Part shown: in pieces, positions 79 through 32,657 of the stretch
Position numbering within the stretch: the first letter of the stretch is position 1
Layout of the letters: every line of letters begins with the position of its first letter
NCBI GenBank assembly: GCA_034521595.1
Contig: JAXHMG010000001.1
Location: 52,857-116,856 of the forward strand
DNA from: Gemmatimonadota bacterium
GTDB taxonomy: Bacteria; Gemmatimonadota; Gemmatimonadetes; Longimicrobiales; Gaopeijiaceae
Reading direction: 5' to 3'
DNA length: 64,000 bases
Made by a program: the position numbers and the translations under genes
The notes under the pieces: generated by a model
Database searches by the model: none
What the model was told of the DNA's origin: nothing
Seen by the model: only the letters and a program-made list of their open reading frames with translations

Positions 79-152
79 TGGGCGCGAGAGGACTCGAACC
101 TCTGACCTCTACGATGTCAACGTAGCGCTCTAACCAACTGAGCTACGCGCCC
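79..152 (-). tRNA. tRNA-Val(GAC)
   Basis: Minus-strand cloverleaf GGGCGCGTAGCTCAGTTGGTTAGAGCGCTACGTTGACATCGTAGAGGTCAGAGGTTCGAGTCCTCTCGCGCCCA. Anticodon loop TTGACAT. No encoded CCA. Confidence 0.9.
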
Positions 153-181
153 GGTCGTACGAACCGAGGATGCTGCTGCTA

Positions 182-255
<74 letters not shown>

Positions 256-271
256 GCGATCGACGATGGAA

Positions 272-355
272 TGCCCACGACAGGACTCGAACCTGTACGC
301 CGTTTCCGGCACTGGTCCCTCAAACCAGCCTGTCTACCAATTCCAGCACGTGGGC
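272..355 (-). tRNA. tRNA-Leu(GAG), class II with long variable arm
   Basis: Minus-strand GCCCACGTGCTGGAATTGGTAGACAGGCTGGTTTGAGGGACCAG, then variable arm TGCCGGAAACGGCGT, then T-arm ACAGGTTCGAGTCCTGT. Anticodon loop TTGAGGG. Confidence 0.9.
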
Positions 356-414
356 AGAAGCCTGCATATCCTTCATAGGCCGACCGGGCCGCCCACCAAC
401 GGACGGCCGGTGCA

Positions 415-498
415 TGCTCGAGGAGGGACTCGAACCCTCACGGGGTTTCCCCCACAGGATCCTGAATCCTGCGCGTCTACCAATTCCGCCACCCGAGC
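415..498 (-). tRNA. tRNA-Leu(CAG), class II with long variable arm
   Basis: Minus-strand GCTCGGGTGGCGGAATTGGTAGACGCGCAGGATTCAGGATCCTG, then variable arm TGGGGGAAACCCCGT, then GAGGGTTCGAGTCCCTC. Anticodon loop TTCAGGA. Confidence 0.9.
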
Positions 499-533
499 GC
501 GGGCCGTCCTGAGCCTGCGAGGCCGTCCGACGA

Positions 534-606
<73 letters not shown>

Positions 607-673
607 TCACGCATCACCTGGTGAAGCCGTCATTCTCGGTGCATCGACGACTTCGCTGTCAAATAACGAGGAG

Positions 674-747
674 CGGGGCTGACGAGACTCGAACTCGCGA
701 CCTCCGGTGTGACAGACCGGCACTCTAACCGACTGAGCTACAGCCCC
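674..747 (-). tRNA. tRNA-Asp(GTC)
   Basis: Minus-strand GGGGCTGTAGCTCAGTCGGTTAGAGTGCCGGTCTGTCACACCGGAGGTCGCGAGTTCGAGTCTCGTCAGCCCCG. Anticodon loop CTGTCAC. Confidence 0.88.
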
Positions 748-802
748 TGATTGTGCTACCCACGGTGCTCGGCACCTTCTCCGTACGGCACCGCGACTTC
801 TA

Positions 803-874
803 TGCCCCGACGGGGAATTGAACCCCGATTACCACCTTGAAAGAGTGGTGTCCTAGCCATTAGACGACCGGGGC
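803..874 (-). tRNA. tRNA-Glu(TTC)
   Basis: Minus-strand GCCCCGGTCGTCTAATGGCTAGGACACCACTCTTTCAAGGTGGTAATCGGGGTTCAATTCCCCGTCGGGGCA. Anticodon loop CTTTCAA. Confidence 0.88.
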
Positions 875-888
875 GTACCTGGCGTTGA

Positions 889-961
889 CAGGCCCGGAGG
901 GACTCGAACCCCCAACCGCCGGTTTTGGAGACCGGTGCTCTACCAATTGAGCTACGGACCT
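889..961 (-). tRNA. tRNA-Trp(CCA)
   Basis: Minus-strand AGGTCCGTAGCTCAATTGGTAGAGCACCGGTCTCCAAAACCGGCGGTTGGGGGTTCGAGTCCCTCCGGGCCTG. Anticodon loop CTCCAAA. Confidence 0.88.
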
Positions 962-999
962 CTAGTCTGTCGTGTCGCCCGGCCCCTGGGTATGGATCA

Positions 1000-1072
1000 T
1001 GGCCAGGGACGGAATCGAACCGCCGACACCACGATTTTCAGTCGTGTGCTCTACCAACTGAGCTACCTGGCC
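1000..1072 (-). tRNA. tRNA-Phe(GAA)
   Basis: Minus-strand GGCCAGGTAGCTCAGTTGGTAGAGCACACGACTGAAAATCGTGGTGTCGGCGGTTCGATTCCGTCCCTGGCCA. Anticodon loop TGAAAAT. Confidence 0.9.
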
Positions 1073-1278
1073 CTCGACATAAAAAACCGCCCGAACCATA
1101 GCGGCGCGGACGGGATGCTTCAGGTAAGGCCGGCGACTTACGCGGCCTGCCCCCCCGCCCGCGCAAGCGGGCTCCACGTATCGGACACCGTCAAGAGCGT
1201 AGACTGCTTCGGCAAGACGCGGGTCTCCATCGTCCTAACGTGGCGAGCGCCGCCCTCCGGACGGCGCTCTTCGAACAA

Positions 1279-1352
<74 letters not shown>

Positions 1353-1365
1353 ACAGGGCTGAGAA

Positions 1366-4884: not shown

Positions 4885-4958
4885 CGGGACGTGGCGCAGT
4901 CCGGTAGCGCACTGCAATGGGGTTGCAGGGGTCGCCGGTTCGAATCCGGCCGTCCCGA
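4885..4958 (+). tRNA. tRNA-Pro(GGG)
   Basis: CGGGACGTGGCGCAGTCCGGTAGCGCACTGCAATGGGGTTGCAGGGGTCGCCGGTTCGAATCCGGCCGTCCCGA. Anticodon loop ATGGGGT. A TATAGT -10-like hexamer lies at 4868-4873. Confidence 0.9.
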
Positions 4959-29825: not shown

Positions 29826-31268
29826 TCAGCTCTGTCCGGCCAACGACGGCACGGGCCCGCCCACGCCCGCACGTCCCGGCGCCTCGTCCGCATCGACGAC
29901 GTCGTCGTCCGCCTGGAAGACCTCCATGTCGGTCTCGCCCAACACCCGGCTCGTGGCCGCCCCCGCCGTCATGGAGCCGCTCACGTTGATGGCGGTTCGC
30001 CCCATGTCGATGAGCGGCTCGATGGAGATGAGCAGCCCGGCCAGCGCGACCGGCAGGTTCATGGTGGAGAGCACGATGAGCGCGGCGAAGGTGGCGCCGC
30101 CACCCACCCCGGCGATACCGAACGAGCTGAGGGTGACGACGAGGACGAGCGGCGCCAGGAAACCCAGCGACATGGGGTCGAGCCCCACGCTCGGCGCGAT
30201 CATCACGGCGAGCATGGCCGGGTAGAGGCCGGCGCAGCCGTTCTGTCCGATGGTGGCGCCGAAGCTCGCGGAGAAGTTCGCGACCGCCGGCGAGACGCCC
30301 AATCGGCGGATCTGGTGCTCGATGTTGAGCGGAATGGCGGCAGCGCTCGAGCGGGACGTGAACGCGAACGTCAGCACGGGCCAGATCTTCTTGAAGAAGC
30401 GGGCCGGGTTGAGGCCGGTGAGGCCGAGAACGCCGGCGTGCATGGCGAGGATGAGGGCGAGCCCGAGGTAGGACGCGACGACGAAGCCCATGAGGCCGAG
30501 GATGTCGGAGACGTTCGAGGTCGCGACCACGCGCGTCATCAGCGCGGCCACACCGAAGGGGGTCAGGCGGATGACCATCCGGACCAGGCGCATGACCAGC
30601 CCCTGGAGCGCCTCGATGCCGTCCGTCACGCGGGCTCCGAGCTCCGGATTCTCCTTGCGCAGCCCCAGGGTCGCGATGCCCAGGAGCGAGGCGAACACGA
30701 CCACGCTGATGATCGACGTCGGCTGTGCGCCGGTCAGCTCGTCGAACGCGTTGGTCGGCACGAACGAGAGGAGGAGCTCGGGCACGCTGAGGTCGGCCAC
30801 CTCGCCCTGACGCGCCACCAGGTCCGCGCCCCGCTCGAGCTCCCGAGCGCCCTGCACCAGCCCGTCGGCCGTGAGCCCGAACAGCCGGGTCATCCCGATG
30901 CCGATGACCGCCGAGACGGCCGTGGTCAGCATGAGCACCCCGAGCACCACCGCGCTGATCTTGCCCAGAGAGCGGGCGTCGTCGAGCCGCGTCACCGCCG
31001 AGAGAATCGACACGAGCACCAGCGGCATGACGATCATCTGGAGCAGGCGCACGTACCCGCCGCCCACGAGCCCCACCCACGTCATGGTGTCGTCCACGAC
31101 GGCGTGCTCGAGGCCGTACCCCCACTGGAGCGCGATCCCCAGACAGATCCCCGCCACGAGGCTCATCATCACGTTGTTCGAGAGCGAGGTGCCACCCGCC
31201 TGGCGTCGGGCGAGCCAGACGAGGACGGCGGTAAAAACCGCGAGGTTCGCGAGGAGTGGGATGCTCAT
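29826..31268 (-). CDS. tcyP: L-cystine/dicarboxylate:cation symporter, TcyP/YdjN type (DAACS family)
   Basis: ATG at 31268 with GGAG 6 nt upstream. 480 aa. Blocks YVRLLQMIVMPLVLVSILSAV, LTFAFTSRSSAAAIPLNIE, SFGATIGQNGCAGLYPAMLAVM and GGGATFAALIVL match my recollection of E. coli YdjN/TcyP almost residue for residue. Needs BLAST confirmation. Confidence 0.85.
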   Translation of the reverse strand: MSIPLLANLAVFTAVLVWLARRQAGGTSLSNNVMMSLVAGICLGIALQWGYGLEHAVVDDTMTWVGLVGGGYVRLLQMIVMPLVLVSILSAVTRLDDARSLGKISAVVLGVLMLTTAVSAVIGIGMTRLFGLTADGLVQGARELERGADLVARQGEVADLSVPELLLSFVPTNAFDELTGAQPTSIISVVVFASLLGIATLGLRKENPELGARVTDGIEALQGLVMRLVRMVIRLTPFGVAALMTRVVATSNVSDILGLMGFVVASYLGLALILAMHAGVLGLTGLNPARFFKKIWPVLTFAFTSRSSAAAIPLNIEHQIRRLGVSPAVANFSASFGATIGQNGCAGLYPAMLAVMIAPSVGLDPMSLGFLAPLVLVVTLSSFGIAGVGGGATFAALIVLSTMNLPVALAGLLISIEPLIDMGRTAINVSGSMTAGAATSRVLGETDMEVFQADDDVVDADEAPGRAGVGGPVPSLAGQS

Positions 31269-31308
31269 GGGGAGCTCCGGAGTCGGGCATGCAGATGAAG
31301 GGGGAACG

Positions 31309-31336
31309 AAAAAAGGCCCTCCCGCAGGGGAGGGCC
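31309..31336 (-). terminator. intrinsic terminator (segments 3:4 of the tcyP leader attenuator)
   Basis: The minus strand reads GGCCCTCCC-CTGC-GGGAGGGCC-TTTTTT. It is a 9-bp GC stem, 4-nt loop and U6, about 40 nt upstream of the tcyP ATG. Confidence 0.8.
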
Positions 31337-31366
31337 GGACGGGAGAGCCGGGATGTCCGACTCGGT

Positions 31367-31465
31367 CTACGCGCTCGCGACTCCGCGCACGCGCCCGCCC
31401 GACGCTCCCGGGGGAGCGCCGCAACAACAACAGGAGGCGGTGGCGTTCGTGCGCGTGTGCATCAT
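31367..31465 (-). CDS. Cys-rich leader peptide of tcyP (MMHTRTNATASCCCCGAPPGASGGRVRGVASA)
   Basis: 32-codon ORF ATG ATG ... TCC TGT TGT TGT TGC GGC ... TAG. Four consecutive Cys codons at 31432-31421. It lies between a promoter-like element and the terminator and overlaps the alternative RNA helices. Confidence 0.65.
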   Translation of the reverse strand: MMHTRTNATASCCCCGAPPGASGGRVRGVASA

Positions 31466-31473
31466 CACGTCAG

Positions 31474-31501
31474 GCTATACAGGTCGAAGTGGGTCCGTCA
31501 A
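31474..31501 (-). promoter_or_regulatory. candidate sigma70-type promoter of the tcyP leader (TTGACG-N16-TATAGC)
   Basis: The minus strand reads TTGACG (31501-31496), a 16-nt spacer, then TATAGC (31479-31474). The leader ATG begins 8 nt after the -10, so the leader ORF may be nearly leaderless. Confidence 0.5.
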
Positions 31502-31553
31502 GGGCTCGGGCGGCCCATCGGGACCCCAGGGGCGGCAGGTGCACGGCACTGCC

Positions 31554-32657
31554 TCAGCCCCACCGGAACCGGAGCCGCCCGTCCTCCTCCTCGACGCCCC
31601 CGCCCCACGGGCGGCTTTCCCGGTTCAACGTCCCGGCGAGCCAACGCCGCTCCTCCCGATCCGGTCGCTGAAGGCGAAAGTCCCGGATGCGCATGGGCGT
31701 CATGACCAGCTCCTCCAGCGTACCGGAGGGCGCCAGGCGCGGGAAGTACATGAGGGTCAGCGAACCGCGGTACTCCTCGTGACCGCCGATCCCCTCGTAG
31801 TCGTTGAGGAAGTCTCCGGCGCCGTAGAGGATCAGGCGTCCCTCGTGCACCTCCATCCCCTTGGGGTGGTGGGAGGAGTGGCCGTAAACGACATCGGCCG
31901 CGCCGTGCTCCACGAGCCGGCGAGCGAAGAGACGCTCATCCTCCGGGATCTCGTATCCCCAGTTGCCACCCCAATGCACCGAGACCACGACCCGGTCGGT
32001 CTCCCGGCGTCGGGCCGCCACGTCCTCAGCGACCCGGTCCGCGCCCGACGGGTCCAGGGTCTCCAGGAAGCTGACCCCGGGCCGCTCCGGCCCGGCCTCC
32101 CACGCGGGGAAGACGCCAGCGGTGGGTGAGGCGTACGCGAAGAGCAGAATGCGCCCCCCGGGCGTATCCAGCACGACCGGATTTCCGGCGTCCTCCTCGT
32201 CCTCCCCCGCGCCGCAGGTGGCGATCCCGGCGTCAAGGACGCTACGAAGGGTCTCCCGGAGGCCCTCCCGGCCCCAATCCAGGACGTGGTTGTTCGCCAG
32301 GACCACGGCGTCCAGCCCGACGGCGGTGAGGAGCGGAGCGTTCTGAGGGTGCATCCGGTAGTGGATCGCCTTGTCCGGCCAGGGCTCGCCGTGGGTCGTG
32401 ACCGCCGTCTCCAGGTTCACCACCCGAACGTCCGGCGCCAGGGCCTCGAGCTCCTCCAGTGCGCTGCCCCACACGTAGTCGAAGGCCACCCTCTCGGGAA
32501 TGGATGCGCCGGCCTCCTCGGCGATCCGAACGTAGGTCCGGGCGTCCTTCACATACGGCTCGTGGAGGGTCGGATCCACGGAGTGGGGAAGGACCTGGTC
32601 GATCCCTCGACCCGTCATCACATCGCCCGCCAGAAAGAGGGTCGTCGGGGCGTCCAT
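31554..32657 (-). CDS. CapA-family (poly-gamma-glutamate synthesis-like) metallophosphatase
   Basis: 367 aa. LFLAGDVMTGRGID, VVNLETAVT, ANNHVLDWG, VSVHWGGNWGYE and VYGHSSHH motifs are typical of CapA/YwtB-like PGA_cap proteins. Confidence 0.85.
   Translation of the reverse strand: MDAPTTLFLAGDVMTGRGIDQVLPHSVDPTLHEPYVKDARTYVRIAEEAGASIPERVAFDYVWGSALEELEALAPDVRVVNLETAVTTHGEPWPDKAIHYRMHPQNAPLLTAVGLDAVVLANNHVLDWGREGLRETLRSVLDAGIATCGAGEDEEDAGNPVVLDTPGGRILLFAYASPTAGVFPAWEAGPERPGVSFLETLDPSGADRVAEDVAARRRETDRVVVSVHWGGNWGYEIPEDERLFARRLVEHGAADVVYGHSSHHPKGMEVHEGRLILYGAGDFLNDYEGIGGHEEYRGSLTLMYFPRLAPSGTLEELVMTPMRIRDFRLQRPDREERRWLAGTLNRESRPWGGGVEEEDGRLRFRWG

Follow-up and report, generated by a model that had tools for sequence, protein, structure and literature searches.

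A candidate Cys-codon leader-peptide attenuator upstream of the cystine symporter gene tcyP in Gemmatimonadota

In enterobacteria, the trp, his, leu, thr, pheA, and ilv operons are controlled by leader-peptide transcription attenuators. In Firmicutes, Cys-specific T-box leaders act independently of translation by direct binding of uncharged tRNA, and in E. coli tcyP is controlled by CysB, a DNA-binding activator. Short upstream reading frames with runs of Cys codons have also been described. The polycysteine leaderless small open reading frames (sORFs) of mycobacteria, the 'Cys ribulon' of Canestrari et al., have been shown experimentally to be cysteine-responsive attenuators, and the Ms5788A element among them sequesters the downstream ribosome-binding site and has no intrinsic terminator (10.1101/834739). 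The uORFC-8-2 motif upstream of cysS in Rhodobacterales is a predicted attenuator that combines two Cys codons with a terminator (Brewer et al. 2021, PMC8632094). Leader peptides with Cys runs have been predicted upstream of actinobacterial cys/cbs operons, with the mechanism left open (Seliverstov et al. 2005, PMC1262725). Here, we focus on a leader upstream of tcyP, a cystine symporter gene, in a 64,000-nucleotide (nt) stretch of a Gemmatimonadota contig (JAXHMG010000001.1), which as a whole is called the window. All elements of the leader lie on the minus strand. Based on comparative and folding evidence, it is probably (roughly 0.8) a transcription attenuator of the trp/his type that reads charged tRNA-Cys and controls tcyP.

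The leader open reading frame (ORF), at 31465-31367, runs from ATG ATG CAC to GCG TAG and encodes MMHTRTNATASCCCCGAPPGASGGRVRGVASA followed by a stop. Alternative starts are a GTG at 31468 and an ATG at 31462, and the ORF listing calls the frame as 31468-31367, from the GTG one codon upstream. Codons 12-15 are four tandem Cys codons, TGT TGT TGT TGC (31432-31421), the putative sensor. Both the frame and the Cys codons had been placed at these positions by the first-pass annotation of the stretch, and both are there. Its estimate by eye, that Cys makes up well under 1-2% of residues in neighbouring proteins, is borne out by a count over 24 likely genes of the window, in which Cys accounts for 0.70% of residues and TGT is the minor Cys codon (20% of Cys codons). 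The run TGYTGYTGYTGY, of the form (TGY)4, occurs once on the two strands of the 64-kb window, and 0.02 occurrences are expected from shuffles. It is unlikely that such a run arose by chance.

Directly after the last Cys codon begins hairpin 1:2, GGCGCTCC-CCCG-GGAGCGTC (31421-31400), consisting of segment 1 (31421-31413), the CCCG loop, and the core of segment 2 (31408-31400). ViennaRNA assigns it -15.4 kcal/mol (z -3.7) and extends it by one pair beyond the 31420-31401 first noticed. In the predicted OFF state, this hairpin is the tip of a 72-nt long hairpin (31455-31384; -41.0 kcal/mol, the same in the centroid) that would serve as an anti-antiterminator. Its lower stem pairs 31455-31436 with 31399-31384 and thus joins the 5' part of the ORF to the sequence just past segment 2, and the Cys codons occupy its 14-nt internal loop. 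The earlier proposal that hairpin 1:2 sequesters segment 2 is therefore right in that the hairpin exists, but the sequestering element is larger than proposed.

In the ON-state fold, segment 2 (GGGAGCGTCGGGCGGG, 31409-31394), the 5' strand of the antiterminator, pairs with segment 3 (CCCGTCCGGCCCTCCC, 31343-31328), the 3' strand, which holds the 5' arm of the terminator. A check of this helix by hand gives 15 pairs, one C.C mismatch, and two G.U pairs, in agreement with the single mismatch and two G-U pairs described at first. The 2:3 helix closes a three-way junction (31409-31328; -53.5 kcal/mol, z -3.6, none of 200 shuffles as stable), which includes a hairpin over the 3' end of the leader ORF (31393-31370). 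A spacer hairpin, GAGTCGG-ACATC-CCGGCTC (31363-31345, -10 kcal/mol), is present in both states, and folds of homologues have a hairpin at the equivalent position. The leader stop codon (31369-31367) falls between segments 2 and 3, as the first-pass annotation had it. Pairing of 2 with 3 consumes the 5' arm of an intrinsic terminator, GGCCCTCCC-CTGC-GGGAGGGCC followed by TTTTTT (31336-31309), which an independent pattern scan recovered where it had been claimed. The terminator has a 9-base-pair (bp) stem (-19.9 kcal/mol) and a U6 tract, lies 40 nt before the tcyP ATG, and forms alongside the long hairpin in the OFF-state fold. As a whole, the leader folds better than 200 of 200 shuffles (z -3.7).

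Based on these elements, the proposed mechanism is as follows. Transcription would begin at a sigma-70-type promoter, probably on or next to the leader ATG, and a ribosome would translate the 32-codon leader. When Cys-tRNA is plentiful, the ribosome would pass through the four Cys codons; in this case, or when no ribosome is present, segment 2 would be either within the ribosome or recaptured in the long hairpin (31455-31384). Segment 3 would then be free for segment 4, the terminator (31336-31309) would form, and the terminated transcript would end about 40 nt before tcyP. If Cys-tRNA runs short, the ribosome would stall while a Cys codon occupies its A site, and would cover the lower stem's 5' strand as well as segment 1. 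Once segment 3 (31343-31328) has been made, segment 2 (31409-31394) could pair with it, the terminator would be blocked, and RNA polymerase would read into tcyP. We infer the transcription start, the translation of the leader, the coupling of transcription and translation, and the response to cysteine in vivo.

If the leader serves tcyP, it should accompany the gene in relatives. In a protein-ascertained sample of the best 80 genome loci encoding a TcyP relative (10 non-proteobacterial and 70 proteobacterial), a short ORF containing a run of Cys codons stands directly upstream of the transporter, together with a hairpin and a U-tailed terminator, in eight of the 10 non-proteobacterial loci (L001, L002, L003, L004, L006, L007, L008, and L033), from at least two phyla, which answers the first-pass suggestion to look upstream of tcyP orthologues. 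These eight come from Gemmatimonadota, Gemmatimonadaceae, Longimicrobium, and Acidobacteria metagenome-assembled genomes (MAGs) and from two MAGs labelled Bifidobacteriaceae. The Cys leader is absent upstream of tcyP in the other two non-proteobacterial loci (L005 and L021) and in all 70 proteobacterial tcyP loci. In metagenomes, which the first-pass annotation had also proposed searching, contigs were scanned for three Cys codons 70-100 nt before GGCCCTCCC-loop-GGAGGGC. The scan gave 46 loci, of which 16 have a short ORF and a U tail and are counted as further leaders; the remaining 30, with no U tail and no short ORF, were discarded as chance matches. An alignable tcyP homologue follows 12 of the 16 leaders. 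In L100, a tcyP-like N-terminus begins just before the contig end, and L084 stops at the terminator. The distance from terminator to tcyP start is 12-50 nt in single-leader loci; with the promoter upstream of the leader, tcyP must therefore be transcribed through the terminator. As judged by this shared layout upstream of tcyP in relatives, the arrangement is not due to chance.

A few observations were made in passing on these loci. The two contigs titled 'uncultured Bifidobacteriaceae' (L003 and L006) have 62-65% G+C in the region upstream of tcyP, and L006 is near-identical to the Acidobacteria contig L004 across leader and tcyP; the label is probably wrong and the contigs mis-binned. L005, the Acidobacteria MAG without a Cys leader, has upstream of tcyP, at about 2830-2950, an imperfect palindrome of about 110 nt made of GGTCCTA/GGTCTTA heptamer repeats. 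In the Aeromonadales loci L009, L028, and L055, a reading of two Cys codons and a stop as a leader peptide was rejected, as it has neither start codon nor terminator. Common to all three is a conserved block, CATAACCA...TCTGCTGCTAGCATCGC, which lies about 60-110 nt ahead of tcyP and looks like a promoter or an activator-binding region.

The helices of the switch are maintained among the homologues. Alignment A1 holds 23 leaders, was made with MAFFT, and was not fitted to any structure; from it, RNAalifold recovers 1:2 and 3:4. In hairpin 1:2, five of eight pairs have compensatory changes and 95% of cells are paired. Jointly, 1:2 and 3:4 are 96% paired, versus 49-67% with slid partners, and their covariation score is reached by none of 500 shuffles. 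For the antiterminator 2:3, 83% of cells are paired, versus 48-65% when slid, and four pairs have compensatory changes. The terminator stem is near-invariant, in the protein-derived loci as well as in the pattern-derived ones, where the invariance is by construction since the search pattern fixed the stem. In the protein-derived loci, it probably reflects that segment 3 must pair with both segments 2 and 4. The covariation asked for at the outset is thus present for 1:2 and replaced by maintained pairing for 2:3, but 3:4 is uninformative.

The position of the ribosome was simulated by folding each leader with a 28-nt footprint (A site -15 to +12) forced single-stranded and with the transcript ending immediately short of the terminator's 3' arm, which mimics the moment of decision. 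The antiterminator was scored as formed when at least six of nine nt of the terminator 5' arm were paired with segment 2. When the last Cys codon or the one before it occupies the A site, it forms in 22 of 22 leaders; with the ribosome anywhere from three codons past the run to near the stop codon, it is absent in 18 of 22. The free full-length minimum free energy (MFE) structure holds the terminator in 21 of 22. Thus the Cys run marks the 3' limit of the ribosome placements compatible with read-through, as expected of regulatory codons, and folding of the alternative structures, as had been recommended, reproduces the predicted switch. What the analysis shows is the sequence elements and their conservation, the covariation of 1:2, the maintenance of 2:3, and a switch that, in thermodynamic terms, is feasible and depends on ribosome position; conserved leader, covariation, maintenance, and masked folds all agree with the attenuator first proposed.

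The promoter is accepted on comparative grounds (22 leaders) and not on a consensus score. Its -35 box, TTGACG (31501-31496), is matched by T[TC]GAC[AG] at the corresponding position in 22 of 22 homologous leaders, and its -10 box, TAGCCT (31477-31472, after an 18-nt spacer), by TA[AG][AC]CT with a spacer of 17-18 nt, so that T[TC]GAC[AG]-N17-18-TA[AG][AC]CT precedes every one of them. Of the promoter claimed earlier, TTGACG stands; the TATAGC taken for its -10 box (31479-31474) is overlapped by the conserved TAGCCT and gives way to it. A consensus promoter scan of the window region detected no promoter, because TAGCCT agrees with TATAAT at just three of six positions. Counted from the -10 box, the leader ATG (31465) begins at the seventh nt. 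In the window and in L001, L081, L109, and L115, the distance from -10 box to start codon is 6-10 nt, and other clades have a 5' untranslated region of 45-65 nt containing a hairpin. Since the start codon is so near the -10 box, the leader mRNAs of the window and of these four loci are probably leaderless or nearly so, with the start site inferred from the promoter.

Several points weigh against the attenuator. There is no Shine-Dalgarno (SD) sequence before the leader ORF in the window, and its translation therefore hinges on the putative leaderless initiation. In seven of 22 leaders, the ribosome-free truncated RNA already folds the antiterminator in its MFE structure, so that discrimination by MFE alone is imperfect. 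When full-length leaders are folded with the footprint masked, nearly all have the terminator at equilibrium; like the trp model, this one therefore relies on the kinetics of folding during transcription. The invariant terminator stem yields no covariation evidence. Furthermore, the support for the attenuator is wholly computational, and the model presupposes coupling of transcription and translation in Gemmatimonadota.

Among the alternatives, the one that survives best, itself improbable, is that stalling at the Cys codons is the sensor and the output is different: control of tcyP translation, Rho-dependent termination, or a change in mRNA stability. The sole experimentally studied Cys-codon attenuator does act on translation (10.1101/834739), actinobacterial Cys leaders come without terminators (PMC1262725), and in the full-length fold the SD of tcyP, GGAG (31278-31275), lies in a small weak hairpin. 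That hairpin is, however, local and without link to the leader, and the switchable helices involve the terminator 5' arm rather than the SD, whereas the strong terminator stem with its U6 tract is kept in all leaders. GGAG also stands 6-8 nt before the tcyP start codon in L001, L003, L004, L007, L008, and L033. In the window's full-length MFE structure, the leader 3' end (31365-31383) pairs with 31281-31297, immediately upstream of the SD; this pairing is absent from L001 and was set aside as probably fortuitous.

It is quite unlikely that the short ORF stands as a gene of its own, encoding a Cys-rich micropeptide, either metal- or redox-binding or the precursor of a ribosomally synthesized and post-translationally modified peptide, with its own terminator and with a shared function as the reason for its adjacency to tcyP. 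The frame is conserved (in-frame start and stop in 23 of 23 homologous leaders, with peptides of 17-33 aa), Cys-rich, and equipped with its own promoter and terminator, as such a gene would be. But the run varies from three to six Cys codons or reads CCCxC, the N-terminal residues have no conservation and the rest outside the run is poorly kept, and conservation after the run (S-P-x-G-E, from CUCC...GGAG) is confined to residues that the RNA hairpin imposes. In L008, CGT has replaced two Cys codons, the run has decayed to isolated Cys codons, and a 1-nt deletion shifts the frame after the run, and yet the RNA hairpins are retained. The leader peptide has no Pfam match, and the 12-50 nt gap between terminator and tcyP leaves no space for a second promoter. 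Comparison of the homologues thus argues that the leader ORF acts as a coding sensor rather than as a conserved peptide. A related candidate, Pro-Pro-Gly after the Cys run as a selected EF-P pause site, was dropped because homologues read SPSG, SPEG, SPQG, SPVG, SPTG, and FLSR at this place and keep just the stem-encoded S-P...G-E.

Equally improbable is a riboswitch or protein-binding leader that senses a metabolite or regulator directly and in which the reading frame is incidental. Such a leader would be in keeping with the conserved alternative structures and the near-invariant terminator stem, but its sole strongly conserved single-stranded stretch is the TGY run. L008 excepted, nine nucleotide versions of this run differ solely by synonymous T/C at third positions, always in frame between start and stop, and the limit of antiterminator-permissive ribosome positions coincides with the end of the run. 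No Rfam family matches 31100-31700 even at E values up to 10; the scan gave sub-threshold matches alone (HIV_FE on the terminator stem, two miRNA models, suhB, and a plastid group II intron model), no T-box, and as best leader match Phe_leader, with 15.8 bits against a threshold of 55. An nhmmer search that covered the window and every locus detected no second copy of the leader in the window. Finally, that the hairpin and U tract are merely the terminator of the upstream CapA-family gene, with a chance Cys run in GC-rich intergenic DNA, is very improbable: a pattern scan found no other terminator-like site between the CapA stop (31554) and 31336, but comparative data contradict this explanation, in that leader and terminator travel with tcyP and not with the upstream gene across loci with differing neighbours, a conserved promoter separates that gene from the leader, and only 0.02 (TGY)4 runs are expected per window.

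The gene under the putative attenuator (29826-31268, minus strand) encodes an SDF-family protein (Pfam SDF, E 8e-99), an orthologue of the cystine/sulfocysteine:cation symporter TcyP. It is 55-62% identical to gammaproteobacterial homologues over about 450 residues and 58-61% identical to enterobacterial ones. The DNA of the Citrobacter homologue (L080) is 85% identical to the E. coli gene annotated tcyP, an annotation, 'tcyP: cystine/sulfocysteine:cation symporter', that this gene carries in 5,424 of 5,426 complete genomes. The closest genome match to the window's transporter (84% identity) is in L001, a Gemmatimonadota MAG. The sensed amino acid (Cys) thus agrees with the cargo of the transporter (cystine). 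Because the genes past tcyP are on the opposite strand, tcyP is the sole gene under the leader in the window. The ORF listing and Pfam confirm the flanks given at first, the tcyP ATG at 31268 and the stop at 31554 of the upstream neighbour, a PGA_cap/CapA-family ORF (32657-31554, minus strand). Elsewhere in the window are a cluster of ten tRNA genes (79-1353, minus strand; Val, Arg, Leu, Leu, Ala, Asp, Glu, Trp, Phe, and Met) and a lone tRNA-Pro gene (4885-4958, plus strand).

In some loci, a second, different Cys leader lies in tandem between the first terminator and tcyP (L002, about 2750-2990; L008, about 2780-2960; L033, about 320-500; and also L088, L095, L100, L112, and L124). An example of this second type, from L095, encodes MTMTAPVLATCCRGCRPPPGDAGVRASHGRAA followed by a stop. 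The second type has its own terminator, CCGGCTCTCTC-loop-GAGAGAGCCGG-Tn, and a weak similarity to the first (nhmmer E 1e-5 to 1e-3). Placed one after the other before a single gene, two such attenuators would be expected to give a sharper response. In the remaining two of the 16 metagenome loci (L099, 4600-7862, and L114, 940-1986), a Cys leader and terminator precede not tcyP but a TonB-dependent receptor with CarboxypepD_reg, Plug, and beta-barrel domains. The leaders in question, MFAFHAMMMCCCRCSSPPGGLDRRVHPW and MSIRACMMMMCCCCSPPGGWDRHVHARVDG, each end in a stop, and a further small ORF (..RTRRMC..) stands between leader and receptor. The arrangement suggests that the receptor is an outer-membrane uptake protein under cysteine control. 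The neighbouring genes of L099 give no cysteine-related clue.

A full-text literature search found no paper in which a leader peptide or attenuator is connected with tcyP, cystine symporters, Gemmatimonadota, or Acidobacteria. The first-pass claim of novelty thus holds for the gene, no Cys attenuator of tcyP having been found described; the principle itself is not new, as Cys-codon attenuators had already been shown in mycobacteria and predicted in actinobacteria and Rhodobacterales. By this comparison, the tcyP leader is an unannotated family of a well-known kind of regulator, and what is new is the importer as target and the host phyla. A broader reading, which we favour by a narrow measure, is that the window holds the founding example of an undescribed, terminator-based family of tRNA-Cys-sensing leaders dedicated to uptake, an import 'Cys ribulon' beyond Actinobacteria, with at least two host phyla, Gemmatimonadota (Longimicrobiales included) and Acidobacteriota. 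If so, its features would include leaderless initiation in one clade and two different tandem Cys attenuators before tcyP in another, and the TonB-dependent receptor behind the leader in some genomes would be a candidate importer of cystine or another thiol compound. If the attenuator itself proves real, this classical form of control would reach cysteine in a complete, terminator-based version; its target would be a transporter and not a biosynthetic operon, and its hosts two poorly studied soil phyla with almost no known cis-regulatory RNAs. Furthermore, the leader would provide a compact, portable cysteine-responsive genetic switch, a covariance model would mark cysteine-uptake genes in metagenomes, the uncharacterised TonB-dependent receptor included, and the tandem leaders would be natural material for the study of two ribosome-sensed switches in series. 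The general understanding of attenuation would stay unchanged.

The tcyP leader has features in common with each of the described systems. With the mycobacterial sORFs, it shares consecutive Cys codons in a very short 5' ORF and the relief of repression of cysteine-related genes by stalling, which here is predicted; the window ORF, like these sORFs, probably starts at or next to the transcription start. In contrast to them, the conserved output here is a canonical terminator, the SD is outside the switch, phylum and target are different, and the attenuator is a computational prediction. The uORFC-8-2 motif is likewise a prediction and likewise has tandem Cys codons in an upstream ORF, two stems, and a U-tailed terminator. 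Its two Cys codons (about codons 14-15) are inside the first stem, whereas tcyP leaders have three to six, those of the window at codons 12-15 in an internal loop. It precedes cysS in one alphaproteobacterial order, whereas the tcyP leader precedes a transporter gene, and there is no detectable sequence relationship between the two. The actinobacterial Cys leaders are also short upstream ORFs with Cys runs before cysteine-metabolism genes, but without conserved terminator hairpins, whereas the tcyP leader has the full set of attenuator parts. T-boxes and CysB share the output, that is, induction of cysteine uptake or synthesis genes at low cysteine or low charged tRNA-Cys. T-boxes, like the tcyP leader, choose between antiterminator and terminator, but no T-box matches here.

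The enterobacterial leaders have a short ORF with tandem codons for the sensed amino acid, an adjoining hairpin, mutually exclusive antiterminator and terminator, and a U-tailed terminator before the structural gene, and all of these are found in the tcyP leader. In sequence, the tcyP leader is unrelated to the leader families of Rfam. Its stop codon is well past segment 2, like those of his and leu. Unlike the enterobacterial leaders, it would sense Cys and control an importer rather than a biosynthetic operon, and it occurs in Gemmatimonadota and Acidobacteriota, probably as a leaderless mRNA in the clade of the window.

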